Part shown: positions 25,194-42,454 of the stretch, piece after piece
How the letters are laid out: each line of letters begins with the position of its first letter
Position numbering within the stretch: the first letter of the stretch is position 1
DNA from: Candidatus Eiseniibacteriota bacterium
GTDB taxonomy: Bacteria > Eisenbacteria > RBG-16-71-46
Direction: 5' to 3'
Assembly (NCBI GenBank): GCA_963707915.1
Contig: OY970178.1
Coordinates: 128,001 to 192,000, forward strand
Length of the DNA: 64,000 nucleotides
Notes under the pieces: generated by a model
Seen by the model: the letters and a program-made list of their open reading frames with translations, nothing else
Database searches by the model: none
Told to the model about the DNA's origin: nothing
Made by a program: the position numbers and the translations under genes

Positions 25194-25268
25194 GGCGGCA
25201 TAGCCAAGTGGTAAGGCGAGCGCCTGCAAAGCGCTTATTCCCCGGTTCGAATCCGGGTGCCGCCTCCA
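25194..25268 (+). tRNA. tRNA-Cys (GCA)
   Basis: Acceptor GGCGGCA/TGCCGCC, discriminator T, encoded CCA; anticodon arm AGCGC-CTGCAAA-GCGCT; T-loop TTCGAAT. Confidence 0.96.
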
Positions 25269-26972: not shown

Positions 26973-26984
26973 AGGAGCGAACCC

Positions 26985-27893
26985 ATGAGAACGTCATTCC
27001 GACTCGTCGTCTTCGCTGCGGGACTCGCGCTCCTCGCACTCGTCCCCGGCGCCGCCTCTGCGAAGCTCCGCGTAGCCGCATCCCTCACCGATCTCGCCTC
27101 GATCGCCAGCTCTGTCGGTGGCGACCAGGTCGAGGTCTTCGCCATCGCCCGCCCCAATGCCGATGTCCATCGCGTGGAGGTGCTGCCCTCCTACATGGTG
27201 CAGGTCTCGCGCGCCGACCTCTACCTCAAGGTCGGGCTCGGGCTCGACCAGTGGGCCGACGGCATCATCGACGGCTCGCGCAACGCGAAGCTCAAGGTGC
27301 TCGACTGCGGCGCGGGGATCACGCCGCTCGAGAAGCCCACGAACGTCAACGCCTCGATGGGCGACGTGCACCCGTTCGGCAATCCGCACTACTGGCTCGA
27401 CCCGCGCAACGGCGTCATCGTCGCGCGTGAAGTCGCGGAGGAGCTGGCCCGGCTCGATCCCGCGCACTCGGCCGACTACGGCGCACGAGCCGAGGCTTTC
27501 GCGAAGGAGGCGGAGGCCGCCTACGAGCGCGGGCAGCAACTCGTGGCGAAGCTGCCGGTCCGGACCGTATTCACCTACCACGCCTCCTGGATCTACCTCG
27601 GCCACGCCTACGGGATCGAGATCGCAGCCACGGCCGAACCGGTGCCGGGGATCCCGCCCACCGCGAAGCACCTCCAGGAGCTCGTGAACATCGCGAAGCA
27701 GCGTGGCGTGACGACGCTGATCCAGGAACCCTACTTCTCGGACGATGCCGGGAAGTTCCTGGCCCGTGAGGCCGGGGTGCACGTGATCAAGGTCTCGCCG
27801 TCGTGCGACGGCCCGCAGGCCGGCAGCTACCTCGCCCACTTCGATGCCGTGCTCGGCCTGCTGGCCGGCGCTAGCCCAAAGGCCCGCCCATGA
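26985..27893 (+). CDS. Metal ABC transporter substrate-binding protein (ZnuA/TroA family)
   Basis: DVH, GDVHPFGNPHYWLDP, TYHASW, EPVPGIPPT. Confidence 0.9.
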   Translation: MRTSFRLVVFAAGLALLALVPGAASAKLRVAASLTDLASIASSVGGDQVEVFAIARPNADVHRVEVLPSYMVQVSRADLYLKVGLGLDQWADGIIDGSRNAKLKVLDCGAGITPLEKPTNVNASMGDVHPFGNPHYWLDPRNGVIVAREVAEELARLDPAHSADYGARAEAFAKEAEAAYERGQQLVAKLPVRTVFTYHASWIYLGHAYGIEIAATAEPVPGIPPTAKHLQELVNIAKQRGVTTLIQEPYFSDDAGKFLAREAGVHVIKVSPSCDGPQAGSYLAHFDAVLGLLAGASPKARP

Positions 27894-28766
27894 CGGCTGC
27901 ATTGTCGTTGCCGTTCTTCTGGACCGCACTGGTCGCCAGCCTCGTGCTGGCCGGGATCCACGCTTACCTGGGGTTTCACATCGTGCGGCGCGGGGTCATC
28001 TTCGTTGACCTCGCGCTGGCGCAGATGGCGGCGCTCGGGGTCGCGCTCGCGCTGGTGCTGCGGGTGAACGAGAACGAGGTCCTTCACCTACCTGATCGCG
28101 CTCGGCATGACCTTCGTGGGTGCCGCGGCCTTCGCCTGGCTGCGCGGACAGGAACGGCGGGCGCCGCTCGAGGCCTTCATCGGGATCGTCTTCGCCACCG
28201 CGCAGGCCGCGGTGTTCCTGGTGCTGGAGAAGAGCCCCTCGGGTCCCGAGCACCTCAAGGAGACGCTGGCGGGCAGTCTCTTCACCGTCGACCCGCACCA
28301 CGTGCTCAAGACCGCGGTGCTCTACGCCGTCGTCGGGCTGGCGCACTTCCTGTTGCGCAAGCCGTTCTTCGAGATCACCAACGACCCGAAGGGGGCCGAG
28401 GGCCGCGGTCGCCGGCTGTTCTGGTGGGACCTCGCCTTCTACGGCATCTTCGGCTTCGTCGTCACCTCGAGCGTGCAGATCGCCGGGGTGCTGCTGGTGT
28501 TCGGGCTGCTGGTCATCCCCGCAGTGGCCGGACTGATGGCGACGCAGCGCACCGGGCCGGCACTGGCGATCGGCTGGGTGTTCGGGTTCACTGGAAGCCT
28601 CCTCGGCCTGCTCGGTTCGATCCAGTTCGATCTGCCGGCAGCACCGAGCATCCTGGTCTCGTTGACCGTGCTGCTCTTCGTGCTGGGGGTAGCCGTGACT
28701 CTGCGTCAACGGATTGCGGTCCAGCGCCAGATGCGCGCGGGGGGCAGCGAGCGGGCGGGCGCTTGA
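27890..28766 (+). CDS. Metal ABC transporter permease (ZnuB/ABC-3 family), indel near 28085
   Basis: GIHAYLGFHIVRRGVIFVDLALAQMAALG, EAFIG, SSVQIAGVLLVFGLLVIPA. Confidence 0.85.
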
Positions 28767-28967
28767 GCGAAGGAGTTCCTACGGCAGGCCAATGGCCAGG
28801 CGACGGTGAAACCATCGCCGCAGCGCGTTCCACCCGTATACCCTGCAGGGCGTGCGCTACCGGGGGCTGCACTGCGGTTTCGACGCTCCGCCCGCGCGCA
28901 AGCCCTTCCGCGGTGGCCGCTGCGAGCAGCCATCGCTAGCAACCCCGACACCGTGGAAGGCGCCTGG

Positions 28968-29954
28968 CTAGAACGAGTGCCCGATCACGAACTTGAACAG
29001 GGCTGGGGCGACGAGTTGGTTGCCGTTGACGTGCTCGTAGAGCGGGACGTCAACGGTCAGTGTTGCGCGCAGCCTCGCGAGGCTCGCATCGAGCCCGGGG
29101 GCGGCCAGCACGCGAGTGTAGCCGCTGTCGCCCGGGTTCGCGTCGGCGCCCTGGTCGTGTGCGCGCGTCGCTCCGATGATTTCGATCAGCGGCGCCACCG
29201 TGGCGGCTCCAAATCGGAAGCCCGCGTGCGAAACCGCTGCCGTCAGGTCCACTTCGGAGCCCGGCCTGTACTCCCCGGAATACGCGAAAGGCCGCGCCCA
29301 CTGCCCGTCGACGAACCAGATCCAATTCCGGTCCGCCGTGAGCGGTCCGATGTGGTACACGCCCAACAGCAGGTCCGTGCTGCCGGTGCCGATCTCCGTA
29401 TCGCGATCGAAGTTGGCGTACTTGTAGTCGCCGGTCGGTAGCTTGAGTCCGGCCGTGACGCCCGTCGAGAGGTCAGCCGAAAACCCGGTGTAGATGCCCC
29501 GCACGCGCACGTCGCCCACCGCGCCATGGGTGAAGTCCACGACATTGCCGTCGTCGTTGGTCGTCTTGAAGAGCCGATTCCAGTACGGCACTTCGACGGC
29601 CGCGCCCCACGAGCGGGTCACCATGTACTGCGCGCTCGCGGTGACAAAGCTCGTTCGGATCTGCTTGTCGGCATTGTCGGACGCCGGCGCCGAGGCGGAC
29701 CCGCTCCAGTTGAGGTTCTGGTCCATGAAGTCGTACTCGAGCGAGAACATGCCTCCGCTCTGAGTGGGGAACATCGAGGCGCTGCCAACCTCAAACACGC
29801 CGCAGCCACAGGCGCAGGCGCGGGCCAATTCGGGAAGCACGGCGAGGAGCATCAACGCCGCCAGGGCACGTAGCCGGGAGGAGCGGTGGGTGCACGCTTC
29901 GGCAGGGCGCCCGTGGGCGGGCGAGGGAAGGCTGGTGTATGGCACGCGCTTCAC
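28968..29954 (-). CDS. Outer-membrane transporter (MetA/phenol-degradation-like barrel) with N-terminal CACGC
   Basis: Signal peptide then CACGC, GDVRV, GLKLPTG, GTGSTD, terminal F; true start uncertain. Confidence 0.7.
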   Translation of the reverse strand: MKRVPYTSLPSPAHGRPAEACTHRSSRLRALAALMLLAVLPELARACACGCGVFEVGSASMFPTQSGGMFSLEYDFMDQNLNWSGSASAPASDNADKQIRTSFVTASAQYMVTRSWGAAVEVPYWNRLFKTTNDDGNVVDFTHGAVGDVRVRGIYTGFSADLSTGVTAGLKLPTGDYKYANFDRDTEIGTGSTDLLLGVYHIGPLTADRNWIWFVDGQWARPFAYSGEYRPGSEVDLTAAVSHAGFRFGAATVAPLIEIIGATRAHDQGADANPGDSGYTRVLAAPGLDASLARLRATLTVDVPLYEHVNGNQLVAPALFKFVIGHSF

Positions 29955-30227
29955 TCCTCGGGGTGGAAGGGGAGTTCGTTACGATCCGGACGCGAGCGGG
30001 ACGCTTGGACCAACCACGATCACGCGGATCTTGAGCCCGGGCAGCCAAGACAGTCGACGGCGCAACCGGAAGACCGGGCCGCAGCACCAGAACGATGCAT
30101 GAGGCAGCGGTGGCAGCGCATCGACAGAGAGTAAAGCAGCCCCTTTCGCGCCGGGCAAACGGCGTCGACGAAGCTCAAGGGGGCACGGCCTTGTCCTACC
30201 TTCGCAACTCCCTTCGAACCCACCACT

Positions 30228-30385
30228 AGCAGCCACCGGACGGGAAGGCCCGCGAGGTGTGACACCGCCGGCAAGACGGCCGCCGAAAGCGCGAGCAGCA
30301 CCGCCTGCGTCGAGATCGCGCGAAGACCGAGATCCGGAAGCGTCACACGGTCGGCAATCCGAACATCGCTTTCCATCGTGTTCAC
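30228..30385 (-). pseudogene. Truncated ECF transporter S-component-like gene
   Basis: GTG with AGGAGG RBS; AVLPAVSHLAGLPVRWLL resembles the S-component N-terminus that normally continues PMH; unrelated sequence follows. Confidence 0.45.
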
Positions 30386-30422
30386 GGCCTACCTCCTTCG
30401 TGCGGGACTGAACAGGTCAGCA

Positions 30423-30766
30423 TCACGCCTTGGCGACGACGTAGACGTAGCGCAGTGACTCGTTGCCCGTGTTCGTGACGTCGTGCTCGGTGTGCGGTGG
30501 GCAGTACGCCGTGCACGGGCCAGAAGGCGCAATGATTCGTGCGCAGGAAAGCGCATCTCGCCAGCACCCGAGAGCACCACGACAAGCTCCTCATTTGCCC
30601 CAGTGGAGTGTCTGCCGACGGATTCCTGAGGATGGAGTGTCACGTACCCCGAGCGCATGGTGACGCTCTCGGGAGGCCCATTGAGCACCGGAAGGTAGCT
30701 CTCAGCCATCGCGTCCAGTGGAACGAGTCGGGGCGAAAGGCTGTTCGTGATCGGTCCCGGCTTCAT
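30423..30766 (-). CDS. Cupin domain protein, indel near 30525
   Basis: SGYVTL...VGRHST..NEELVVVLSG.G, continuing in another frame as AYCPPHTEHDVTNTG..LRYVYVVAKA*. Confidence 0.75.
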
Positions 30767-30776
30767 GGCGGCCTCT

Positions 30777-31205
30777 CTAGCGGTGGGACTCCGTTCCCGT
30801 CGTCGTCATGGTCAGCTTTCCAGGTTTCACACCCTTGACTCTGGTCAGGCGATCCGCAAGCTCCCTGACCGCGCCGGCCGGACCTCGAACGGCGAGGACC
30901 TCCATGCAGTTGTGGTGGTCGAGGTGGACATGCATCGCGGCGATGATCGTCTTGCCGTGATCGTGCTGAATGCCGGTCAGTTGCGCCTGGATGTTGCGCT
31001 TGTGATGGTCGAACACCAGCGTCACATTGCCGGCAATCTCGCGCGTGCCGGTCTGGGCGCGATGCTCCACGAGCTGCCCGCGCACCATGTCGGCGACTGC
31101 CTGGGAGCGGCTCTCGTAGCCCTTGGCCTTGCGCATGACGTCGAGCCGTTCCATCAGCGCGGCCGGCATCGACACGCTGAAGCGCCTGAGCAGAGTCGTC
31201 TTCAC
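30777..31205 (-). CDS. nikR: Nickel-responsive regulator NikR
   Basis: RRFSVS ribbon, GYESRSQAVAD, VFDHH, QH, HVHLDHHNCMEV. Confidence 0.92.
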   Translation of the reverse strand: MKTTLLRRFSVSMPAALMERLDVMRKAKGYESRSQAVADMVRGQLVEHRAQTGTREIAGNVTLVFDHHKRNIQAQLTGIQHDHGKTIIAAMHVHLDHHNCMEVLAVRGPAGAVRELADRLTRVKGVKPGKLTMTTTGTESHR

Positions 31206-31320
31206 GGTGCTGCCTCCGGCGCATTAGGCAACACGAAGAAGAGTAGGCGGTCAAACGCGGCGCCAGCGAAGCGCGTGGGAACGCTCGTCGAGGTACGGAC
31301 TGTTCCATCTCATCGCTAGG

Positions 31321-31494
31321 GGTCCGTGGCGGACGGAAGCCGGGGCACGGGATCCTTACGAGCGCCTGGACGCGGAGGGCGTCGCGATCCACGTCCAACG
31401 CGACGTGCTCACCGTCCTCCAGAGCCCAAAGCGGCTGACCTTCGCCTTCGGTAGCTTCGGCCGCTGCGTGCTTCGCCTCGAAGCCGCTCCGTAG
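31321..31494 (+). pseudogene. C-terminal remnant paralog of the candidate selenoprotein at 36177
   Basis: YERLDAEGVAIHVQRDVL...RLTFAFGSFGRCVLRL aligns with YEGLEGDGLAVHVHRDVL...RLSFAFGKFGRCWLRL; N-terminal half absent, upstream in-frame TAG at 31225. Confidence 0.7.
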
Positions 31495-31521
31495 CTCGCG
31501 CAAGGTCGCGGTTCCGCTCCT

Positions 31522-32220
31522 TCAGTGCGTGAACAGCCACGCTCCTCCGGCCAGGATGAGCACCGCCGCTCCCCACCGCACCCAGCGCGTGGTGGTCTGA
31601 AGTCGCCCCGGGCGCGCCAGCGCGGCGGCCGCCCCGACCGAGGTACCGGCCACCAGCAGCAGCAGCGAGTGCCCGAGACCATAGGCGAACAGGAGGCCGC
31701 CCGCCGCGGCAGGGCCGATTTGCGGCACCAGCCCCAACAGCAGCAGCAGCACCGGCCCGGTGCACGGCAGGGAGACGACCCCGAACACGAAGCCGAGGCT
31801 GAGCGCACCCACCGCGCCCGCCGTGCGCGTGACGGCCGAAGGCATGGGGATCGCCGGCAGGCGGAGCCAACCCAGGAGGTGCAGCGCGGCAACGAGGCAC
31901 ACACCCGCGATGACGTAGCGCCACCACGGCGCACCTAGGAGCGCCGTGGCGCTCGAGAAGACGGTGAACAGCAGCGCCAGCTCGAGCGCGAAGCCCACCA
32001 CGAAGAGGAGGGAGAACCCCAGCGTCCTGCGCCAGGGGCGCTCAGCCGCCCCACGTCCCACCAGGCCCGCCGAGAAGCCGACCAGGAGCGGGACCATGGC
32101 CAGCACGCAGGGATTGAGCGCAGTGAGCGCGCCGCCCAGGAACGCGGCCAGCGGCGCCAGGGCGGGGCTGTGAGCGATGACCGAGGCCAGTTGCTCGCTG
32201 AGGCTCTCGAGGAAGTCCAC
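31522..32220 (-). CDS. ccdA: CcdA/DsbD-type transmembrane disulfide reductase
   Basis: ALNPCVLAMVP and SLPCTGPVL motifs, YGLGH; GTG start. Confidence 0.85.
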   Translation of the reverse strand: MDFLESLSEQLASVIAHSPALAPLAAFLGGALTALNPCVLAMVPLLVGFSAGLVGRGAAERPWRRTLGFSLLFVVGFALELALLFTVFSSATALLGAPWWRYVIAGVCLVAALHLLGWLRLPAIPMPSAVTRTAGAVGALSLGFVFGVVSLPCTGPVLLLLLGLVPQIGPAAAGGLLFAYGLGHSLLLLVAGTSVGAAAALARPGRLQTTTRWVRWGAAVLILAGGAWLFTH

Positions 32221-32234
32221 GCGGCCGGTCCCGG

Positions 32235-32651
32235 CTACTTCGCCGTCGCCGGGCGCAGGGTCACGCCGAGGCTGTCCTTGAAGATCTGCTCGATCTCCTC
32301 CCGGGCGAAGAAGCCTTCGTGTCGGAACCGCTCCCGGCCCTTCCGGTCGAAGAAGACCTGGGTCGGGATCAGCCGGATCTTGTAGGGTCGTCCGGCGTCG
32401 GGGTTCTGCCACACGTCGACGAACTGCACGTCCACCGCGCCCGCGTAGTCCACCCTGAGTGCCTCGAGGATGGGCGCCATGCGCTTGCATGGGATGCACT
32501 TCGTAGCGCCCAGGTCCACCAGACGCGGGAGCGTGGCTGGCGCCGGGGCCGGCGCAGCAGCTTTGGGAGCCTTGCCTGCGAAGGCGGGCACGGCGGAAAG
32601 GAGCGCCAGCCCGACGAGTAACAGGGTGGTGGATGCGAAGCGACCTCTCAC
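32235..32651 (-). CDS. Exported thioredoxin family protein
   Basis: Signal peptide, DLGATKCIPCKRM, IPTQVFFD, RHEGF; GTG with AGGAGG. Confidence 0.85.
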   Translation of the reverse strand: MRGRFASTTLLLVGLALLSAVPAFAGKAPKAAAPAPAPATLPRLVDLGATKCIPCKRMAPILEALRVDYAGAVDVQFVDVWQNPDAGRPYKIRLIPTQVFFDRKGRERFRHEGFFAREEIEQIFKDSLGVTLRPATAK

Positions 32652-32710
32652 GGGAATCCTCCTTCGACACGGCTCACGCGAGGAACCGCGTCGCGAATGC
32701 GCGACGAACT

Positions 32711-32944
32711 CTACGACAGGATGGCTTTGATCTGTTCGACCGAGGGCACCTTGCCGGCCAGCTTCACCTGGCCGTCCACCACCAGCGCCGGCGTGGACAT
32801 GACCCGGTAGCCCACGATCACGTTGAGGTCGGTGATCTTCTCGACCTCGCAGGTGAGCCCGAGCTCCTGCACGGCCTGGCGCGTGCGCTCGTAGAGCACC
32901 TTGCACTTGCTGCACCCGGGCCCGAGCACTTCGATGGTGGTCAT
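32711..32944 (-). CDS. Small redox-active disulfide protein (thioredoxin-like)
   Basis: IEVLGPGCSKC, VMSTPALVVDG, GKVPS. Confidence 0.88.
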   Translation of the reverse strand: MTTIEVLGPGCSKCKVLYERTRQAVQELGLTCEVEKITDLNVIVGYRVMSTPALVVDGQVKLAGKVPSVEQIKAILS

Positions 32945-32967
32945 GGCAGCGTCTCCTTGAAGAGTCA

Positions 32968-34017
32968 TCAAATCAGCCAATTGAACAGGTAGCCGACGGC
33001 GATGATCCCGAGGCTGACCACGCCGAGGAAGACGGCGATGAGCCGGGGGCGGAGGACCTTGCGAAGGATGATGGTCTCGGGCAGCGAGAGCCCGATCACG
33101 GCCATCATGAAGGCGAGGACGGTGCCCAGCGCGGCGCCCTTGCCGAGGAGCGCCTGGACGACCGGGATGATGCCGGCAGCGTTGGAGTACATCGGCACGC
33201 CAATCAGGACCGCCAGCGGCACCGACCACCACGCGCCCTTGCCCATGACGCGGGCCATGAAGTTCTCCGGCACCCAGCCGTGGATCGCCGCACCGACGGC
33301 GATGCCGACGAGTACGTACGGCCAGACCTTGCCGACGATGTCCTGCACCGCCTCGACGCCCATGCGCAGGCGGATGTCCCAGCCAAGGCTCGAGGCGTCG
33401 TAGCCGACTTCGGAGACCGCGGTGTAGACCCACGGCTCGACGTGACGTTCCATGTGCAGCCGCCCGATCACCCAGCCGGAGACGATCGCGATCACCAGGC
33501 CGGTGCCGACGTAAAGGGCCGCAACCTTCCAGCCGAACAGGCCGAACAGCAGGGCCAAGGCGATCTCGTTGACCATCGGGGCCGAGATCAGGAACGAGAA
33601 GGTCACGCCAAGCGGCACCCCGGCGGTGAGGAAGCCGATGAAGAGCGGCACGGCTGAGCAGGAGCAGAACGGGGTGACCACGCCCAGGCCCGCGGCCATC
33701 AGGTTGCCCACGGACTCCTTGCGGCCCGCCAGCATCGCCCGCGTCTTCTCTGGCGTGAAGAACGAGCGGATCACCCCGACGACGAAGACGACGAGCGTTA
33801 GGAGCATCAACACCTTCGGTGTGTCGAAGATGAAGAACTCCAACGCGGAGCCGAAGTGGGTCGACGGCGAAGCGCGCAACACGGTGTATGCCAGCCAGCG
33901 GGAGAGGGGGCCGAGGGCGGCATAGAGCGCCACCCAGGCGAGAAGACCCAAGGCGACACGCCAGGGCAGCGGCAGGCTACGGCGGGTCTTGGTGCGAGGT
34001 GGCGCCGCCTCGCTCAT
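32968..34017 (-). CDS. arsP: ArsP/DUF318 permease
   Basis: [40 protein letters not shown]. Confidence 0.85.
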
Positions 34018-35162
34018 GAGTGCGCCCCTTCGGCGCGCTGCGCCAAGGCAGGCGTCAGCTCGAGGTGGAAGTAGCGCCGCCGGAACCACAGCGCCACGTT
34101 CACCAGCCCGATGAGGGCAGGCACCTCGACCAGCGGCCCGATGACAGCGGCAAAGGCGGCGCCGTGGTGGATGCCGAAGGTCGCCACCGCCACCGCGATG
34201 GCCAGCTCGAAGTTGTTCGACGCTGCCGTGAACGAAAGGGTCGCCGACTGGGGGTAGTTCGCGCCCACCCATTTGCTCATGAAGAACGAGACCACGAACA
34301 TGACCACGAAGTAGATGAGCAACGGGATGGCGATGCGCACCACGTCGAAAGGCAACTGGACGATCTTCTCGCCCTTGAGCGAGAACATCACGACGATGGT
34401 GAAGAGCAGGGCGATGAGCGTGATCGGGCTGATCTTCGGGATGAAGCGGCGCTGGTACCAGTCCTTCCCCTTCGCCGCGATCAGGCTGAAGCGGGTGATG
34501 ATCCCGGCGAGGAAGGGGATGCCGAGGTAGATGAAGACGCTCTTCGCGATCTCGGCCATCGTGATGTTCACGGCCACACCCTTCAGGCCGAACCACGCCG
34601 GCGCGAGCGTGATGAAGACGTAGGCGTAGACCGAGAAGAAGAGCACCTGGAAGATCGAGTTGAACGCGACCAGGCCCGCGCAGTACTCGCTATCACCCTT
34701 TGCGAGGTCGTTCCAGACGATGACCATGGCGATGCAGCGCGCCAGGCCGATCAGGATGAGGCCAACCATGTACTCGGGCTTGTCCCGCAGGAACAGGACC
34801 GCCAGGCCGAACATCAGGATCGGTCCGACCACCCAGTTCTGGACCAGCGAGAGTGCCAGCACACGGCCGTTGCGGAAGACGCGGCCCATCTCCTCGTAGC
34901 GGACCTTCGCCAGCGGTGGGTACATCATCAGGATCAGGCCGACGGCGATGGGTATGGAAGTGGTGCCGACGTTGAAGCGATTGATGAACGGCACGATCTG
35001 CGGGAACAGGAAGCCCCCGCCGACCCCGATGGCCATGGCGAGGAAGATCCACAGGGTGAGGAAGCGATCGAGGAACGAGAGCCGACCGACAATGCCGCCA
35101 GTGCTCCGGTTCTTGTCATGGCCTGTCACGACATCCTCCGTGGTTGCGGCATTCCGCGTCAT
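34014..35162 (-). CDS. acr3: Acr3 arsenite efflux transporter
   Basis: [49 protein letters not shown]. Confidence 0.95.
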
Positions 35163-35596
35163 CGTCCTTGCTCCTTCTTGTTGCCACCGGGTCGCGTCGC
35201 TTCATCCATGAGCCCATGGACCAGTTGCTCGATGCGGTCACGTACGTGCCGGAAGCCGTCGTCGTCGAGAGTCTTGGGATCGGGCAGATCCCAGTCCACG
35301 CGATGGCGCGTCGGCAGCCACGGGCAGGCGTCTCCGCAGCCCATGGTCACGACGTAGTCCCAGGTGATTCCGGTGGGCAAGTCGTCGAGGCCCTTCGACT
35401 GCTGCGGCTTCAGGTCGATTCCCTTCTCGGCCATGAACTGGACCGCGCGCGGGTTCACCTGCCCGGACGGCCGCGAGCCCGCGCTGAAGGCGGCGACGTG
35501 CTCACCTCCGAGAGCCCGGGCGAAGCCCTCCGCCATCTGGGAGCGGCAGGAGTTCTCGATGCAGACGAAGAGCAGGCGGGGGAAGGGCTCAGGCAT
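35159..35596 (-). CDS. arsC: Arsenate reductase ArsC (LMW-PTPase type)
   Basis: [31 protein letters not shown]. Confidence 0.92.
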
Positions 35597-36011
35597 GTTG
35601 CGGCTCCTTCCGCTGAGCGCGGCGCGGGCGTGTCCGGGAGAAGGTGGGAATCCCGGCGGGAGGGAGACTGCAGAGCTGAGTAAGCGGCACGGCGAGGACT
35701 TCCCGAAGGCGCTTGCGATCCGCAAGGATGACTGGGTCCCGGTCGAGGGGGCCACGCAACAGCGCCAGCACCGCGCTGGCGTAATGGTCCGGCGCACCCG
35801 AGAGGCAGTATTCGACCCACTTCCCGTCGCGTCGATCCTCGACGAGTCCGGCCTGCTTGAGAATCGTCAGGTGCTTGGACACGGTGGAGAGGGCCAGGCG
35901 CAGGACTGCCTGGACCTGGCAAACGCAGAGCGGGCGTCCCTCCAGGAGCTTGAGGATCCGTGTGCGGGTAGGGTCGCCGGCCGCCTTGAGGGTGAGTTCG
36001 AGATCGCGCAT
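35589..36011 (-). CDS. arsR: ArsR/SmtB repressor of the ars operon
   Basis: KAAGDPTRTRIL, LCVCQ, STVSKHL, GKWVEY. Confidence 0.9.
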   Translation of the reverse strand: MRDLELTLKAAGDPTRTRILKLLEGRPLCVCQVQAVLRLALSTVSKHLTILKQAGLVEDRRDGKWVEYCLSGAPDHYASAVLALLRGPLDRDPVILADRKRLREVLAVPLTQLCSLPPAGIPTFSRTRPRRAQRKEPQHA

Positions 36012-36028
36012 GGAGTGTCTCCCTTCGT

Positions 36029-36075
36029 CACTTCGTCACATGGCGAAGTGTAGGAGGGACGCCGGGGCTCGTCAA
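36029..36075 (-). promoter_or_regulatory. ars promoter with palindromic operator
   Basis: Minus strand TTGACG-17nt-TACACT; inverted repeat CACTTCG-N8-CGAAGTG (36029-36050) overlapping the -10/TSS. Confidence 0.75.
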
Positions 36076-36176
36076 GTCACCTCCTCCGATCGCTGTGAAT
36101 GCGTGGGCGGTCATGGTCGGCCGTCAGATCCGCAACCAACCCAGCGGTCGGGCTCAGCTTGTGGCATAGTAAAGCC

Positions 36177-36470
36177 ATGCGTCAGGCTCATTTCGAGTCC
36201 GCGGAAGTGCGGGGCTACATCGGCGCCCGGGGCGGGGTTCTGTGCATTTCGCTCCAGGCGATCATGCACGGCTGATGAAGGGTCGACCTCGGCCCGGTCG
36301 GGTCGCTCGAGATTCCTGAGGACGCGGCCGCCTACGAGGGTCTCGAGGGGGACGGCCTTGCGGTCCACGTGCACCGTGACGTGCTCGCCAAGCTCAAGGA
36401 TCCCGCGCGACTCAGCTTTGCCTTCGGAAAGTTCGGGCGCTGCTGGCTTCGTCTCGGAGCCGATCCCTAG
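36177..36470 (+). CDS. Candidate selenoprotein with tandem in-frame UGA-UGA (CC/Se-motif, HesB-like fold)
   Basis: ATG 36177; TGA 36273 and TGA 36276 in frame after HG; frame stays open with high-GC3 codons to TAG 36468; downstream hairpin; paralogous C-half at 31321. Confidence 0.72.
36284..36305 (+). promoter_or_regulatory. SECIS-like hairpin
   Basis: CGACC-[T bulge]-CGGC-CCG-GTCG-GGTCG starting 5 nt after the second UGA, with GGT near the apex. Confidence 0.5.
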
Positions 36471-36518
36471 GCGTTTCCGTGGACTTGGGCACCCCATGAA
36501 CTGCAGCATCCGAGCCGC

Positions 36519-36542
36519 ACTTGAGCCCTAACTTGAGCCCTA
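36519..36542. repeat. 12-bp tandem duplication ACTTGAGCCCTA x2
   Basis: Direct reading, immediately upstream of a -35 box. Confidence 0.8.
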
Positions 36543-36545
36543 ACC

Positions 36546-36581
36546 TTGACGCAGGTGAGTGGGCGAACTAGAATCGCCTAC
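36546..36581 (+). promoter_or_regulatory. Promoter and operator of second arsR operon
   Basis: TTGACG-17nt-TAGAAT; imperfect inverted repeat GTGGGCGA-N7-TCGCCTAC straddling the -10; GTG 7 nt after the -10 suggests a leaderless mRNA. Confidence 0.72.
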
Positions 36582-36947
36582 GTGCATACAGTCGCGAGGT
36601 CCTCACCGGCACAGGTCGAGCGGATGTTTCGCGCGTTCGCCGACCGCACACGGCTCCGGCTCCTTCATCTCCTGAAGGACGGAGAGCTTTGCGTTAGCGA
36701 CATCGTGACGATCCTCGAGGTGCCGCAAGCGCGCGTGTCCCGCCACCTGGGCTACCTGCACCGGGCTGGACTCGTTGACGTCCGCAAGCAGGGGCTCTGG
36801 GCCTTTTACCGGCTCCGCCCGCCAGAATCTCCCTTCCATCAGCGTCTCGTCGGCTGCTTGGGACACTGCTTTGCCGGGGTGCCGGGACTGGCCACTGATT
36901 CCCGCCGCGCCGCCAGGATCAAACGCTCCGGTGGGTGCTGCCCGTGA
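36582..36947 (+). CDS. ArsR/SmtB family regulator with C-terminal CC
   Basis: FRAFADRTRLRLL, ELCVSD, RVSRHL, GLWAFY; ends SGGCCP. Confidence 0.88.
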   Translation: MHTVARSSPAQVERMFRAFADRTRLRLLHLLKDGELCVSDIVTILEVPQARVSRHLGYLHRAGLVDVRKQGLWAFYRLRPPESPFHQRLVGCLGHCFAGVPGLATDSRRAARIKRSGGCCP

Positions 36948-37055
36948 TGACCCACCCCGAGGGAGGCCTCCTGACCATGAAGGCGGCTGCGATGGGCCCG
37001 CCTTGGACTTCGTCTTCGTCGAGAGCTGGGACATCCACCACCTGAGGGGGTAACG

Positions 37056-37814
37056 ATGAATCGCCGTGGCCTCGGACTCGCCTTGCTGTTGCTCTGCACC
37101 CTGGGACCGGTCGCCTCGGCCTCGACGCAGCGTGACGTGGAGTCCGCCGCCAAGCAGCAGAAGATCGCCTTCATCCTGGTTTACGATCAGAGCGCGACCG
37201 GTATGGCTCAGGCACGGGACGTCATCCGCCAGACCATGAAGCAGGTCAGCGGGTCGGTCCTGCTGGAACTGGACCGTTCCGCCCCGGCGAACGCCGAGTA
37301 CGTGGCGAAGCTGCGGCTGGCCGGCGCACCCGTGCCGCTGATCCTCGTCGCGGCGCGAAACGGCGTCCTGGTGGCGGGAGTGCTGGCTGCCCAGGCGACG
37401 CCGGCGGTCCTGCTGAGCGCGGTTCCTTCGCCCAAGCAGGCGGAGATCATGCAGGCTCTCCAGGGCGGCAAGCCCGTGTTCATCACCGTGAGCCGAAAGG
37501 GCATGCCCCGCGAGCCCAAGGCGGTCGCGGCTTGCGTCGCGGCATGCGGCAAGATGGGCGACAAGTCCGCGCTGGTCCGCATCGACATGGCGGATCCCCG
37601 GGAAGCGGCCTTCCTCTCCCAACTCAAGATCGACTCCGCCGCGAAGGAGCCGGTGACGCTGGTGGTCAATGCGCAGGGCCAGGTCACAGGCTCGTACACG
37701 GAAGTCCAGGATGTGGCCAATCTCGTCCAGGCGGCGACCAGGGTCGTGAGCGGCTGCGGCCCCGGTGCTTGCGGTCCGGGTGCGGCGAGTTCCTGCGCTC
37801 CGGCCAAGAAGTAG
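37056..37814 (+). CDS. Exported protein, probable tandem thioredoxin-like folds with Cys-rich tail
   Basis: Signal peptide; two similar alpha/beta units; CVAAC; tail GCGPGACGPGAASSC. Confidence 0.65.
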   Translation: MNRRGLGLALLLLCTLGPVASASTQRDVESAAKQQKIAFILVYDQSATGMAQARDVIRQTMKQVSGSVLLELDRSAPANAEYVAKLRLAGAPVPLILVAARNGVLVAGVLAAQATPAVLLSAVPSPKQAEIMQALQGGKPVFITVSRKGMPREPKAVAACVAACGKMGDKSALVRIDMADPREAAFLSQLKIDSAAKEPVTLVVNAQGQVTGSYTEVQDVANLVQAATRVVSGCGPGACGPGAASSCAPAKK

Positions 37815-37826
37815 CGGCGGGTCGGC

Positions 37827-39050
37827 ATGAACCTCCGCACCATCCTCTGGAAGGAACTGTGGCTGCGGAAGTCCCGGATGATCTCCGGGCTTCTCGCGAT
37901 CACCCTTGGAATCGCCGTCATCGTCGCCATCCAGTCGGTCGCTTCCGTCTCGGAGCGGGCCGTCAAGATCAAGCTCGACAACCTCGGCGCGAACATCCTG
38001 GTGCTGCCACAGGCCGCTTCCGTGGATGACTACTATACCGCGGACATCGACGCCCCGACCTTCCCCGAGGACTACGTGGAGCGACTCGCCACCTCCATGC
38101 TCCCGGGCGTCGACAACCTGTCCCCCAAGCTCACGCGACGGGTCAGGGTCGGCAGCGTTCCGGTCATCCTCACGGGCATCCTGCCGGCCAACGAGCTTGC
38201 CTCGAAACCGATCTGGCAGAGCGCCGGTCTGGCCGGCGCGGCGCTCGCCGCAGCCTGCGGCCCGAGCCCCGAGGTCGCGAAGAAGGGCCCCTCCTATGCC
38301 GACGAGCGCCTCCAGCGCAAGGCGATCACCGCGCTCGCACCGACGGAGGTGCTGCTCGGGAGCGTCGCCGCCCAGCGCCTGAACCTTCGGGCAGGCGGCA
38401 GGGTCACCATCGAGGGACGCGAGTTCTCGGCCGCGCGCATCCTGCCGGAGACGGGCACGATCGACGACGATCGCATCTACGCGCACCTGCACGTGGTGCA
38501 GGGCCTGCTCGGGACCGGAGCGCAGGTCAGCGCCATCGAGATCATGGGCTGCTGCTCCGCGATCTCCGACGGGCTCCTCGGGAAACTGCGGAACATCCTG
38601 CCGGACACCCGGATCACGACCATCGGCCAGATCGTGAACACCCAGATCGAGACCAATCGCTTGTTGGCGAAGGTCTCCCTGATCTTGCTGGTGATCATCG
38701 TGCTCGTGGGCGCGATCTCGATCGCGAACTACATGTGGGCCAACGTCGAGGAGCGCAGGCGCGAGATCGGCACGCTCCTCACGCTCGGCGCGACCCGCGG
38801 GAGCATCTACCGTCTGTTCTTCGCGAAGTCGATCGTCCTGGGTGTCCTGGGCGGGATCGGCGGCTACGCTGTCGGGACGATCGCTGCCCTGATCCTCGGT
38901 CCGCAGCTCGCAGGATTGTCCGTCCAGCCGATCCCGATCTACCTTGCCTGGTCCGTCCTGATCTCCCTGGTGATCGCCGTGCTCGGGAGCTGGTACCCGA
39001 CCTACCGCGCCACTCGCCTCGATCCGGCCTCGATCCTCCAGGAGTCCTAG
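37827..39050 (+). CDS. MacB/FtsX-family ABC permease
   Basis: LGANILVLP, ETGTIDD, IEIMGCC, ERRREIGTL..LGAT, RATRLDPA. Confidence 0.88.
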   Translation: MNLRTILWKELWLRKSRMISGLLAITLGIAVIVAIQSVASVSERAVKIKLDNLGANILVLPQAASVDDYYTADIDAPTFPEDYVERLATSMLPGVDNLSPKLTRRVRVGSVPVILTGILPANELASKPIWQSAGLAGAALAAACGPSPEVAKKGPSYADERLQRKAITALAPTEVLLGSVAAQRLNLRAGGRVTIEGREFSAARILPETGTIDDDRIYAHLHVVQGLLGTGAQVSAIEIMGCCSAISDGLLGKLRNILPDTRITTIGQIVNTQIETNRLLAKVSLILLVIIVLVGAISIANYMWANVEERRREIGTLLTLGATRGSIYRLFFAKSIVLGVLGGIGGYAVGTIAALILGPQLAGLSVQPIPIYLAWSVLISLVIAVLGSWYPTYRATRLDPASILQES

Positions 39051-39052
39051 CG

Positions 39053-39742
39053 ATGTTCACGCTTCAGGGCATCACGAAGTCCTATGCCAGCCGACGCGGG
39101 GTCGTCCACGCCCTCTGGGACATCTCCCTCAGCATCGAACGGGGGAGTTTCACTGCGGTCACGGGTCCGTCGGGCTCCGGGAAGACCACGCTGCTCCTGA
39201 CACTCGGCGGTCTGATCCGGCCAACCTCCGGACAGGTGGTGTTCGAGGGGACCGACCTCGGTAGTCTCGACGAGAAGCGTCTCGCCGGGTACCGCAATCG
39301 GAGCGTGGGGTTCGTCCTGCAGAGCTTCAACTTGATTCCCTACCTGAGCGCCTACGAGAACGTCATGGTCCCGGCGTCACTCGGTGCGTCCACCAACGGC
39401 GACCAGACGCAGCGGGCGAGGTCGCTTCTGGATCGCCTGGGAATGGCGGACCGGATGGACCATCTGCCTCGTGAGCTTTCCGTCGGACAGCAGCAGCGTG
39501 TCGCCATCGCGCGCGCGTTGAGCAACGACCCCAAGGTCATCCTGGCCGATGAGCCGACCGGCAATCTCGATCCAGCCCTGGCCGCAGAGATCCTGGCCAT
39601 CCTCCGGGATCTGAACGAGAAGGAGGGGCGGACGGTGGTGCTGGTCACGCACAGTCCCGAGGCGGCGAAGGCGGGGCGCCAGCACATACGACTGACGGCG
39701 GGGCAATGCACTGCAGAAGACCCGGCGCTCGCGGTGCTCTGA
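39053..39742 (+). CDS. ABC ATP-binding protein (LolD/MacB type)
   Basis: [31 protein letters not shown]. Confidence 0.93.
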
Positions 39743-39920
39743 TTCCGCGTGGGCGCCTGGCCGGCTTGAGGCTGGCGCCAAGCCGGGAAGCCTCCTGACC
39801 CGCTGGTGATCGGATCCCGGCCTCCTGAGGCCTCCCCTGCGCCGCTCCGTCAACCCAGGCGCCGCATCGAGGGTCACCCAGCCGTTCCGCCCTGGGCGGC
39901 TGTCAGCGCGCTCAACCTGT

Positions 39921-40053
39921 GGGCTTCAATTGCCCCTTACACGCCCGGCGAATCAACCGCTACTTGCCAGCTGTCCCCCCGGACCTTGTGGTAGCCTCGC
40001 GCTAGTTTCCAATTGCCCTTGACGCGCCGGTTCGAATCCGGGTGCCGCCTCCA
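39921..40053 (+). repeat. Element end 1: ~106-bp arm + tRNA-Cys 3' 27-mer (exact)
   Basis: 40027-40053 identical to 25242-25268; arm aligns without gaps to 41826-41931. Confidence 0.9.
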
Positions 40054-40349
40054 GTTCTCCGAGTTGTGGCCCTCTCTCCGACCCTGGTTCAGGCCAGGCC
40101 ACCTGGAGCGAGTCCAACCGGAGCCGCCGACGCCAATCTCGCTGCAGTTGGCCGCGCGATGCCCCGCTTGTGGTTGGCGCCGCAAGCGGGGGTTTCGTCT
40201 TGGGGGCAGGAGGGGACTGAAGAGGACCTTGACCCGGCGATCCATCGGTGAACAACGGGTTCACCCTGGGAAGATGACGGAACCCGTCAAAGCGTGGGCA
40301 GCTCGTCCACGCGGAACCGTCATCGGGTTCACCCGAGCTGTCTGCTGGG

Positions 40350-41108
40350 TCAATGACCCTTGGTCGCCGCACGATGCCGGAAGAGCACAAGGCACGCGAC
40401 GATGAAGGTCAGCAGTGCGGCGGACGCAGAGTAGCGGCTCAGCGCCAACCCGCCCGCGCGGACCGGCTTGTCGAGGAAGTCGCCGACCACGGCGCCCAAT
40501 GGACGCGTCAGGACGAAGGCCGCCCAGAAGAGCTTGGTGCGCGAGATCTTGGTCCAATAGTACGCTGCGACGACCAGCGCGAGCAGCACGCCGAATACGG
40601 CGGCCGCGCCAAGATAACCCAGCCCGGCGGTATCGGCCGTCCAGTCGCCCAGCGCGGTGCCCAGGGTCTGGGAAAGCATGATGGTCACCCAGTAGAACAT
40701 CTCGGTCTTGGCCGAAATCACCGTATCCACCGACACCGACCCCATGGTGCGATACCACGTGACGAGCGACGCGATCAGCAACGCGAAGAGCAGCGATGTG
40801 CCACCTGCGTAGCCGATGTGGAGCGAGCGGTCGGCAAAGTCGGCCAGCGTGGTGCCGACGGTCGTCGTGGCGACGATCGTCGTCCAGTACAAGTACGGAT
40901 GGAAGCGCTTGGCGGCGATCTGCGCGCCCACCGCGAGCAGGAAGATCAAGGCGAAGATGCCGGTGGCGACAAGGTAGCCAAGATTCATCGACATCGACAC
41001 CGCGTCTCCGCCGGTCTCTCCCAGCGTCGTGGCGGCGATCTTGACGACCCAGAAGAGCAGCGTGATCTCCGGAACCTTGCTCACGCGCTTCTCAATCGCG
41101 GTGCTCAC
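40350..41108 (-). CDS. DUF347/COG4705 membrane protein
   Basis: SKVPEITLLFWVVKIAATTLGETGGD, YW, TLGTALGD, FWAAFVLTRPLGA repeats; GTG with AGGAG. Confidence 0.85.
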   Translation of the reverse strand: MSTAIEKRVSKVPEITLLFWVVKIAATTLGETGGDAVSMSMNLGYLVATGIFALIFLLAVGAQIAAKRFHPYLYWTTIVATTTVGTTLADFADRSLHIGYAGGTSLLFALLIASLVTWYRTMGSVSVDTVISAKTEMFYWVTIMLSQTLGTALGDWTADTAGLGYLGAAAVFGVLLALVVAAYYWTKISRTKLFWAAFVLTRPLGAVVGDFLDKPVRAGGLALSRYSASAALLTFIVACLVLFRHRAATKGH

Positions 41109-41825
41109 GGAGTCTCCTCTTCGCGAAGGGGTGCTGGACAGACTCCGGTGCGACCAGCGCACACCCACCCCGGCCGCATTCCGACCACGCGCGGCGCCCG
41201 CCACGCGTGGCAAACGGTGTGCTCATGAATGGGCTTTTGCTAGCGCACGGCCAGCTCTGCTTCGTCTACGCACGCCAGCAGCGCGTTCGCCGCATGCACG
41301 TCGCCGGGGCGTCCGTCCGTGACGGCCTCGATCACCGGCTCAAGCTTCTCGCTGAACGCGAGGGCGCTTGTCGAACAGGTGCGCTGAGCAGCGGAGGCTC
41401 CGGAGACACCACCAGAGGCCGATCCCAGCGCGGCCAGACAGGCCACCACGACCAGTGGGGCGGTGGTCGCATCGCGGCACGCAGATCGCGGTCGCAAAGT
41501 GCGGGGCGCGGCGCTCATTCATTGCTCCTCAGGACTCGACGGACGGCCCGGCGTGCACAGCCACGGCATGCTCAGTGTCGTAGCTGACACGAAGCGAGCA
41601 GTTGTGTCAATGCGCAGCATGAAGGCGGCCTCCCGGTGCGCCGACCGCTTCAGCCCCGCCGATCCGGGGTGGCCGGCGATCTTCTCTGCGCTGCCCGCGG
41701 GTCGAGCTGCGGGACGTGGCCCACCCTCGACGGTGAATCGGGCGACCCGGATGTTTCGGTCAAGCAACCTGCCTCGACCGCTATCCGGTCGCTTGGCCCA
41801 GGGCGGCCATACGCGTTCGATGCGC

Positions 41826-41958
41826 GGACTTCAACGGCCCCTTTCACGCCCGGCGGATCAGGGGCCACCCGCCGACCTCCCCATCGGACCTTGTGGGGGG
41901 CTCGGGTAGGTTTCCGATCGCCCTTGACGCGCCGGTTCGAATCCGGGTACCGCCTCCA
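41826..41958 (+). repeat. Element end 2: arm + tRNA-Cys 3' 27-mer (26/27)
   Basis: CCGGTTCGAATCCGGGTACCGCCTCCA at 41932-41958. Confidence 0.88.
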
Positions 41959-42454
41959 GATTCGCTCCCGGCCCGCCGCTGCGACGACCTCTGATTCCGG
42001 TAATCGCCCGGGCATGCGATGTCGGGCCTGGGAGTCGGCGTTCCCACGCCCTGTCCCCGACGGGTTCCGTGGTGGGTCCGCCACCGCCTCCGGGCGACGC
42101 CGGCAGCGGGAACCACCGCTGCCGTACCGCCTTCCCGGAGTCTGCCCACTCCACGTGTGCGATGGCTCGTTCTCCTTGCGATGGTGCGAACCCTCGCAGA
42201 CGATGCGATCGGCGCCGGCGACGTCTCCGTCGCCCGCCTTTCGGGTGCCGCCGTTCCGAGGGGCCCGGTGGCTCGCAGGGCCGGGTGTCAGAGCGGCGAC
42301 AACCCCAATGTGCCCCGGCAAGCGAAGATCACGAGCACTTGAGTTCGGTATGTGGTTCGACGCAGGGGAGCCCGCGGGGAGTCGTCATGGTGGGAGCCGC
42401 CGATCCACCGCGCCCATCTGCGCTGGTCGGCTCGCGCCGGTTCCGCCGCCAGGC

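Follow-up and report, generated by a model that had tools for sequence, protein, structure and literature searches.

A conserved ArsR-linked MacB/FtsX-type ABC cassette with a proposed periplasm-side role in arsenical handling, and a neighboring gene for a predicted tandem-selenocysteine protein, in an Eisenbacteria genome

In the textbook view of bacterial arsenic resistance, arsenic is sensed in the cytoplasm, reduced, and expelled through the inner membrane by secondary or ArsA-driven efflux. ArsD, a cytoplasmic As(III) chaperone with a thioredoxin fold and vicinal cysteines, feeds an ATPase-driven pump. In MacB-type transporters (MacB, LolCDE, and FtsEX), cytoplasmic ATP hydrolysis moves a periplasmic domain, and no cargo is carried across the inner membrane. 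To our knowledge, little attention has been paid to what becomes of arsenite in the diderm periplasm. Here, we analyzed a 64,000-nucleotide stretch of DNA (the window) from a Candidatus Eiseniibacteriota bacterium (assembly GCA_963707915.1, contig OY970178.1, positions 128,001–192,000 of the forward strand), to which all positions below refer unless another contig or locus is named. Five genes within 36177–39742, all on the plus strand and thus co-oriented as a preliminary description of this DNA had stated, encode a protein with two adjacent predicted selenocysteine (Sec) residues (the UU protein), an ArsR repressor (ArsR2), an exported protein, a permease, and an ATP-binding cassette (ABC) ATPase. 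We consider it probable, with moderate confidence, that the ArsR2-run genes form a cassette handling arsenicals from the periplasmic side, and that the UU protein is a separate, cytoplasmic selenoprotein of ars operons.

Several described systems resemble parts of this locus. As in MacB, LolCDE, and FtsEX, the permease has an FtsX C-terminal domain, a MacB_PCD domain between the first two helices, and four hydrophobic stretches, and it is accompanied by a separate LolD-like ATPase; it differs from them in an invariant periplasmic cysteine triad, in its arsenic context, and in the lack of recurring MacA/TolC-type genes nearby. The ArsD-ArsA-ArsB system is similar by analogy only, in that a thioredoxin-fold, vicinal-cysteine protein with a cysteine-rich tail lies beside an ATP-driven transporter in an ars operon. 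Unlike ArsD, the protein described here is exported and has two thioredoxin folds, its transporter is of the MacB type rather than an ArsAB pump, and the two are unrelated in sequence. Of the published systems, the nearest in theme is SAO (Haft and Gwadz, bioRxiv 10.1101/2022.07.06.499078); according to the accessible part of that text, it is an operon with repeated CC/CU motifs that encodes an ABC transporter along with a thioredoxin-like protein, a CC-COOH protein, and selenoproteins, and it is read as a system for heavy-atom handling. A permease in the window (32971–34017) matches SaoE below the cut-off. In contrast to the cassette, SAO is described there with a MetI-type uptake permease and substrate-binding proteins and is not ars-linked, and the same part of the text makes no mention of FtsX, MacB, ArsR, or NF041239.

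In the accessible part of the study by Yang et al. (2015; PMC4435449), five ABC transporters were counted among approximately 700 ars-operon transporters, all of them with ACR3 and with the type not given; these five may belong to the cassette family. The ars-gene review by Ben Fekih et al. (2018; PMC6205960) contains no ABC, FtsX, or MacB term, and the open-access literature yielded neither a description of a MacB/FtsX pump in ars operons nor anything relevant on adjacent Sec codons in bacteria. The proteins of the cassette themselves bear only generic names, and the earlier suggestion that the module may be undescribed was supported within these searches. Regarding the UU protein, a table in the part of a 2026 review that could be consulted (PMC13188914) lists NF041239 with one Sec in CxxU and the HesB-like TIGR01911 with one Sec in UxGP, and the review notes a small subset of selenoproteins with two or three Sec residues. 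The UU protein resembles these two families in its small size and the placement of Sec in a Cys-type motif, matches NF041239 weakly, and has a tentatively IscA/HesB-like predicted fold, but it has two adjacent Sec residues, and TIGR01911 was not matched at an E-value of 0.01 or better.

A scan of genome collections with the exported protein of the cassette yielded 49 loci, all in metagenome-assembled genomes (MAGs), with labels including Eisenbacteria, Bipolaricaulota, Gemmatimonadetes, Ignavibacteria, Zixibacteria, Bacteroidetes, Deltaproteobacteria/Syntrophaceae, Hyphomicrobiales, and others. The permease gene lay directly downstream of the exported-protein gene in 44 of the 49 loci, or 44 of the 47 that offered space for it (1300 nt or more), and in one locus (L048) the permease was found upstream of a second partner paralogue. 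The ATPase was present in 43 loci. An ArsR gene was found in 43 loci, and in 32 loci one lay upstream in the same orientation at a distance of up to 1.1 kb. ACR3 was found in 32 loci and never on the other strand; its distance from the block was at most 300 nt in 16 of these and at most 1.5 kb in a further 9. ArsR or ACR3 was present in 44 of 49. Among the 32 upstream ArsR open reading frames (ORFs), 22 contained C[VA]C, a motif known from the classical As(III) site, and seven cassette loci had an ArsR of the GGCCP type. Clustering of the neighboring ORFs revealed an ArsP-like permease (17 loci), a small thioredoxin (9), a DGC-domain protein (9), CcdA (8), and ArsM (7) as recurrent neighbors, the names being our reading of the cluster representatives. 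No kinase and no mer, cad, or czc cluster was present among the 30 commonest neighbor clusters of the 49 loci.

The same linkage thus recurs with differing gene orders across phyla, which is hard to ascribe to chance. The preliminary description had proposed an ArsR-regulated envelope system and had made this depend on conserved CC motifs and co-occurring genes; on both points the comparison agrees with it, in that the genes of the cassette co-occur in the 49 loci, their order recurs, and the vicinal-cysteine motifs of the permease and the exported protein, each compared in 24 sequences, are conserved across phyla. Together with the genomic setting of the UU gene described below, these comparisons provide strong comparative-genomic support for a predicted arsenic-handling role of both elements. 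A second copy of the cassette exists in the same genome (G000:C1:1818785–1821838; locus L026, 5158–8850), with genes for ArsR (GGCCP type), the exported protein, the permease, the ATPase, and, in last position, the UU protein. Frame changes break every gene but ArsR, and this copy is probably a decaying duplicate.

The permease (37827–39050, plus strand; 407 residues) is an FtsX/MacB-type, that is, type VII ABC, protein, matching PF02687 with 74.9 bits (cut-off, 25.5) and PF12704 with 32.2 bits (cut-off, 27). Its hydrophobic stretches cover residues 15–43, 274–307, 335–366, and 364–391, with a large loop between the first two. C144, C242, and C243, the last two within the motif IEIMGCC (residues 237–243), lie between stretches 15–43 and 274–307 and are therefore predicted to face the periplasm by the MacB topology. 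These three cysteines were invariant in all 24 intact sequences, in which the mean column identity was 76%. IEIMGCC was found in 40 of 45 picked permease ORFs, and of the five exceptions, two were wrongly picked frames and three carried frameshifts. The periplasmic domain of the permease was matched at an E-value of 1e-20 or better by at least 1434 protein clusters, and the only name found among the named clusters was "ABC transporter permease". Solved structures matched only residues 265–403, the membrane part; the best was MacB (5nik, E-value 6e-24), and FtsX (8tzj) was also among the matches.

The ATPase (39053–39742, plus strand; 229 residues), whose ATG is two bases past the permease stop codon, is of the LolD/MacB/FtsE kind and matched PF00005 with 115.6 bits and TIGR02211 (LolD) with 206.5 bits, the latter below the cut-off of 307.75. 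Equivalog scores were far below the cut-offs, namely 52 against 362 for lolCE and 61 against 966 for MacB (NF007826), and no MacA-type gene lies beside the operon in the window. The permease and the ATPase thus belong to the type VII ABC superfamily but constitute neither a MacAB-TolC nor a LolCDE system. A pile-up in the read data at 39429–39682, within the ATPase gene, corresponds to conserved ABC motifs of other organisms.

The exported protein (37056–37814, plus strand; 252 residues), hereafter the partner, contains a signal peptide, two thioredoxin-fold domains with the motif CVAAC (C160 and C164), and a cysteine-rich tail, GCGPGACGPGAASSCAPAKK. It matched no Pfam or NCBIfam family; its 125 database relatives were all unnamed, and its protein-atlas neighbors were unnamed clusters as well. 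C160, C234, and C247 were invariant in 24 of 24 sequences, and C164 was kept in 19 of 20. The commonest form of the tail is GGCCPS...SCxPxKK, and the GCGP variant in the window is a minority form. In the structural model (predicted local distance difference test score, pLDDT, of 85.7), two tandem thioredoxin folds are followed by a disordered tail (residues 234–252), and C160 and C164 are one turn apart on a helix of domain 2 (residues 153–166). A Foldseek search with this model yielded 103 matches in the PDB at an E-value of 0.001 or better, the best being PDO of P. furiosus (1a8l, E-value 8e-7), with further likenesses to PDI (a-b pairs), QSOX, and the N-terminal domain of AhpF; the TM score over both domains together was only 0.29–0.38. 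In some Bacteroidetes loci (L048, 3268–6729; L051), a second partner paralogue with a cysteine tail follows the ATPase.

ArsR2 (36624–36947, plus strand) is an ArsR/SmtB repressor that matched NF033788 with 89 bits (cut-off, 55) and PF01022 with 55.7 bits (cut-off, 22), and CmtR and BigR were weaker matches. A sigma-70-like promoter of the operon formed by ArsR2 and the cassette, TTGACG-17-TAGAAT, was identified at 36546–36574 with 10 of 12 consensus positions matched; two such sites occur in 4.2 kb, compared with 0.3 expected. This promoter is located inside the long ArsR ORF (36546–36947), so translation probably starts at the ATG at 36624, giving a protein of 107 residues. ArsR2 represents a distinct subtype: the motifs ELCVSD, CLGHC, and the C-terminal SGGCCP were identified in it, and ELCVSD, CLGHC, and GGCCP were all kept in 10 of 10 ArsR2-type sequences. 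ELCVSD contains one cysteine of the R773 pair, and the motif set reproduces none of the proven As(III) site types R773 C32/C34/C37, AfArsR C95/C96/C102, and CgArsR C15/C16/C55. ArsR2 shares the fold family and C-terminal cysteines including a vicinal pair with the repressors AfArsR, SpArsR, and ArArsR, but its set of ELCVSD, CLGxC, and GGCCP fits none of their site types, as given in the accessible part of PMC11868830, exactly. The same source states that the C-terminal CC pair of ArArsR is dispensable and that its site is built from other cysteines. By analogy, the C-terminal CC of ArsR2, for which conservation was confirmed, need not be the sensing site as the preliminary description had implied. 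ArsR2 and the partner carry the same motif pair, CxxxC (CLGxC) and GGCCP, which suggests that the regulator and its periplasmic partner recognize the same ligand.

The preliminary description had also assigned ArsR2 its own promoter and operator; the promoter stands, and the operator does so only in part, with no inverted repeat at the ArsR2 promoter in the window. A block common to nine ArsR2-type upstream regions, ACTATAATCACCTACATGAGTACA, lies over the −10 box and runs downstream to approximately 36592. In our own reading of the alignment (A7), this block is an 8-6-8 dyad, which is perfect in L029 and L030, matches at 7 of 8 positions in L031 and L052 and at 6 of 8 in L036, and drops to 3–5 of 8 in the other four regions, including 3 of 8 in the window. 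The dyad is a plausible operator that would be degenerate in the window. A perfect 12-nt tandem duplication, ACTTGAGCCCTA, is located at 36519–36542, immediately before the −35 box. The 12-nt unit is single in related DNA contigs from two sediment runs, and the repeat is therefore not a conserved operator.

The UU gene (36177–36470, plus strand), running from the ATG at 36177 to the TAG at 36470, would encode a cytoplasmic selenoprotein of 97 residues with the motif HG-U-U and C88 and without a signal peptide. Its codons 33 and 34 are a tandem in-frame UGA UGA (36273–36278), which is likewise in frame in the related genomes G003 and G004, in the second copy of the same genome, and in locus L030. 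The machinery for Sec insertion is encoded in the genome with all scores over the cut-offs (SelB, 345 bits; tRNA-Sec, 71; SelA, 544; SelD, 368). The selD gene (G000:C1:534747–536011), which adjoins the tRNA-Sec gene, has one in-frame TGA, and SelD is itself a selenoprotein.

A protein search tolerating stop codons was carried out in 61 related genomes, which are a sample with several incomplete members, and UU matches were obtained in four of them (E-value of 0.01 or better). Full-length copies with two in-frame TGA codons were found in three, namely the genome of the window and two of the seven other members of the genus (G003 and G004); the former additionally carries the frameshifted second copy, in which both TGA codons are kept, and the match in the fourth genome was weak and partial. 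Database entries of UU proteins are fragments that stop at ...AIMHG or start right after the UU. Compared with G004, the numbers of substitutions at codon positions 1, 2, and 3 of the plus-strand frame were 7, 11, and 23, respectively, and position 3 was the most variable in six of six pairs among the four UU copies. An antisense ORF (36111–36509), which is open and also conserved, was rejected as the coding frame on the grounds of this position-3 peak. A degenerate DNA pattern scan of metagenomes gave 121 stretches, of which 80 were retrieved and 11 proved to be true UU relatives; these carry UU by construction of the search pattern. A tblastn search with the UU protein found none in the 49 cassette loci, and a hidden Markov model of the UU family then detected a further, divergent copy in L030, also with TGATGA.

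A SECIS-like (selenocysteine insertion sequence-like) hairpin, assigned by alignment pairing, lies at 36290–36305 on the plus strand, with a 6-bp stem in the window and the apical loop GGUC at 36296–36299. The consensus of 15 sequences has a 7-bp stem and a GGUC apical loop 24–27 nt from the first U of the first UGA, and 95.2% of the alignment cells are paired, with compensatory changes in three pairs. Only 1 of 500 shuffled alignments reached a value as high, and slid controls paired at 58% at most; the stem is partly fixed by the search pattern in 11 of the 15 rows, and the compensatory pairs are at free positions. Single-sequence folding of the region was uninformative (z = −0.68). The SECIS element of E. 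coli fdhF has a GGUC loop with G23/U24, and by likeness to this element one hairpin could plausibly serve both UGA codons. With these signals for Sec decoding present at the sequence level, the UU gene is a credible selenoprotein gene. Metatranscriptome contigs cover 36123–36390 and 38996–39289, and the parts of the stretch that lack RNA coverage are uninformative. The former, a 268-nt sediment contig with 4 differences, spans the start codon, both UGA codons, and the hairpin, and is weak evidence, and of transcription only.

The AlphaFold model of the UU protein (pLDDT, 91) places U33 and U34 at the tip of a beta-hairpin. The top nine Foldseek matches of this model were all IscA/SufA/HesB-like (best, 1s98; E-value 6e-3, probability 0.98, TM score 0.43), and so were the top seven in a VIA search (best, 1r94; Z 5.6, root-mean-square deviation of 2.9 over 75 residues), in which the next fold reached a Z of only 2.2. 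The model thus points, weakly, to a probable IscA/HesB-like fold, and in our own reading U33, U34, and C88 may be set at the places of the IscA cysteines. C88, located in FGxxGxC, was kept in 15 of the 17 rows of the alignment (A2) that cover this residue. The profile NF041239, "CC/Se motif family (seleno)protein", matched the UU protein with 29 bits (cut-off, 40) and gave 19–23 bits in the genome search, and no Pfam or NCBIfam ArsD profile matched it at an E-value of 0.01 or better.

The UU gene was included in the same module as the ABC genes in the preliminary description, and this part did not hold. Of the 49 cassette loci, 48 lack the UU gene, which lies beside the cassette only in the window, in a near-identical relative (L151), in the second copy of the same genome, and in L030. 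Conversely, UU without the cassette was found in 10 of the 11 metagenome loci and in the genus relatives G003 and G004, in which the partner was not found. The UU protein is therefore better regarded as a component of ars operons in its own right than as a fixed member of the cassette. Genes of ars operons were located on the same strand beside the UU gene in 8 of the 11 metagenome loci, for example in the orders ArsR-ACR3-permease-small thioredoxin-CcdA-thioredoxin-UU (L084), ACR3-UU-ArsC (L101), and ACR3-ArsC-ArsC-small thioredoxin-UU (L147); with the queries used, no ars gene was found in L081 (a 1.5-kb contig), L115, and L132. UU is thus commoner with ars operons containing ACR3, ArsC, and small thioredoxins than with the cassette. 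In L024 (G003:C30), a UU gene at 7543–7826 lies on the opposite strand between arsC and arsR, overlapping the 3′ end of arsR by approximately 50 nt, which is an unusual layout.

On the opposite strand to the UU gene, a divergent ars operon of seven genes occupies 31525–36011 (minus strand). It encodes ArsR1 (35592–36011), an ArsC of the low-molecular-weight protein tyrosine phosphatase type (35162–35596), ACR3 (34017–35162; 458 bits against a cut-off of 283), a SaoE/ArsP-like permease (32971–34017; 135 bits for SaoE, below the cut-off of 325), a small thioredoxin of the MTH895/ArsE family (32714–32944; 108 bits against a cut-off of 62), an exported thioredoxin (32238–32624), and, as the last gene, a CcdA/DsbD-like membrane protein (31525–32220). 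Convergent with the CcdA-like gene is a remnant of the UU family (31354–31491, plus strand; approximately 61% identical) that consists of the C-terminal half only, without the UU part. A 19-nt inverted repeat (79% complementary) at 36020–36059 overlaps the minus-strand promoter-like site of ArsR1 (36075–36047); it is a candidate ArsR1 operator and could also control the divergent UU gene. Rfam searches at gathering thresholds gave no match in the 36–40 kb region.

The surrounding DNA has a lower G+C content (0.65–0.68 at 26–42 kb of the window, compared with 0.70–0.74 elsewhere). A tRNA-Cys gene at 25194–25268 is followed by this stretch of approximately 16 kb (26000–42000), in which ORFs read as a ZnuA-like binding protein, a metal ABC permease, and a NikR-like regulator precede the ars genes, and the stretch probably represents an island for metal resistance. 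The partner was found in 5 of the 61 related genomes, the genome of the window included, and in none of the 7 other genomes of the genus, and the island therefore looks acquired. Downstream of the ATPase, a 148-nt direct repeat (77% identical; 39907–40054 and 41812–41959) without an Rfam match flanks a minus-strand membrane-protein gene (40350–41213) and may mark a mobile element or the island boundary. Group II intron RNA domains (RF02001, 125 bits; RF01998; RF00029) were detected at 10890–12688 on the plus strand.

Starting from the observed genes, motif conservation, folds, linkage, and signals for Sec decoding, we infer a substrate (As(III), methylarsenite, or Sb), protein contacts, a transfer direction, and a role in resistance as follows. 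The mechanics of MacB-type transporters lead us to read the cassette as a periplasm-side machine. ArsR2 with the partner, the permease, and the ATPase would form a module under ArsR control that is accessory to ars operons. The periplasmic domain of the permease would offer a trivalent arsenical a three-thiol site made of C144, C242, and C243, and the soluble partner would offer its flexible GGCCP...SC tail and the helix-borne CxxxC. ATP-driven motion might then force the hand-over of As(III), methylarsenite, or Sb(III) between these thiol sites, much as LolCDE passes lipoproteins on to LolA. Metalloid expelled by ACR3 would thereby be removed from the envelope or kept from re-entering; the partner would be a periplasmic counterpart of ArsD, and the exported thioredoxin and CcdA of the island could keep the thiols reduced. 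Export by the module, as proposed in the preliminary description, goes beyond the sequence evidence: pumps of the MacB type work from the periplasmic side, and neither adaptor nor outer-membrane genes recur in the vicinity. Its overall reading of an ArsR-linked, arsenic-linked, and cysteine-based system appears partly supported by the sequence comparisons.

In the UU protein, Sec33, Sec34, and C88 may form a three-ligand site or, with the two Sec residues, a vicinal diselenide. As(III) prefers three-ligand sites such as two selenols and one thiol would provide, and the adjacent Cys-Sec pair of thioredoxin reductase is comparable to a vicinal diselenide center. Most likely, the UU protein binds As(III) as a chaperone or buffer, or is a low-potential redox partner. 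Only tentatively do we go further and propose that the cassette is, among bacterial arsenic resistance determinants, the first of the ABC type and the first known to act on the periplasmic side, with a cysteine-triad motor of the MacB type that gives trivalent arsenicals to a secreted ArsD-like carrier or takes them from it, and that UU proteins are the first bacterial family with adjacent Sec residues served by one SECIS element and act as a selenol-based arsenite chaperone or redox partner.

Arsenic might be a stress to which the cassette responds rather than its cargo: an FtsEX-like ABC pair could switch a partner that shields or repairs periplasmic dithiol proteins attacked by arsenite, such as those of cytochrome c maturation or the clients of DsbD/CcdA. 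Pumps of the FtsX type are known to drive partner proteins in the periplasm, the permease has FtsX (8tzj) among its sequence matches, the thioredoxin folds of the partner resemble PDO and PDI, and CcdA with an exported thioredoxin is encoded in the same island, CcdA also occurring in 8 of the 49 loci. Neither thioredoxin domain of the partner contains a CxxC motif, however, making classical oxidoreductase chemistry unlikely, and the invariant three-cysteine set of the permease suits direct metalloid coordination; we regard this protective role as unlikely, though it deserves consideration. Somewhat less likely still is that the cassette handles another soft cargo co-regulated with arsenic, such as Sb(III), Hg(II), Cd(II), or sulfur/selenium-arsenic species, e.g., thioarsenicals in sulfidic sediments. 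The four-cysteine sets (CxxxC and CC) of ArsR2 and the partner would also suit Cd or Hg, ArsR/SmtB regulators sense many metals, with CmtR and BigR as weaker matches here, and the sequencing runs with DNA of this stretch are labeled sediment or soil metagenomes, although most of these hold only small shares of it and we base no conclusion about habitat on the labels. The recurrent neighbors are nevertheless ACR3, ArsC, ArsM, ArsP-like permeases, and ArsR of the C[VA]C type, with mer, cad, and czc missing from the 30 commonest neighbor clusters.

A role in sensing or uptake, either as Bce-like detection of periplasmic arsenite or as import of arsenicals for methylation or respiration, appears improbable. 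ArsM is present in 7 of the 49 loci, and AioX, a periplasmic As(III) binder with a signaling role, is known (cited within the accessible part of PMC7965956); on the other hand, neither kinase nor response-regulator genes recur among the 30 commonest neighbor clusters of the 49 loci, MacB-type pumps generally have no known import role, and the tight linkage is to the exporter ACR3. The idea that an unrelated envelope ABC system merely travels on metal islands is already hard to hold, and we consider it very improbable. It would agree with the lower G+C content at 26–42 kb, the tRNA-Cys gene beside it, and the detection of the partner in 5 of 61 related genomes and in none of the 7 from the same genus, a pattern that mobile DNA would show, but immediate same-strand adjacency to ArsR, ACR3, or both recurs in distant phyla with differing gene orders, and the cysteine motifs are invariant.

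Several observations weigh against the reading of an ArsR2-run periplasmic arsenical cassette beside a separate ars selenoprotein. Among the 30 commonest neighbor clusters of the 49 loci, no membrane-fusion or outer-membrane cluster was found, and with no such gene recurring there is no evident route out of the cell. Neither ArsR nor ACR3 was found within the DNA examined in L047, L051, L063, L072, and L073, three of which are short or weak matches. The sampled relatives are all MAGs and do not form independent samples, and the frameshifts in the second cassette copy indicate that the cassette is dispensable in at least one copy. The partner lacks CxxC in its thioredoxin domains in 24 of 24 sequences and has no detectable sequence relation to ArsD (Pfam/NCBIfam, E-value of 0.01 or better). 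As for the UU protein, its fold matches are weak, its match to NF041239 is below the cut-off, and no full-length Cys form was present among 21 matches, all partial, in a library of 1.84 billion proteins; the insertion of Sec is a prediction, and contigs of RNA libraries can come from DNA carry-over.

If the reading of a periplasm-side arsenical cassette is true, an ATP-driven, cysteine-based periplasmic module would be a new step in the ars pathway, encoded within ars operons across many sediment lineages. A large family of proteins now annotated as "hypothetical protein" or "ABC permease" would thereby receive a name, and the module would provide new parts for arsenic biosensing or capture. 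The UU family would be a natural test case for the decoding of adjacent UGA codons with a single SECIS element and for the protein chemistry of selenium and arsenic.

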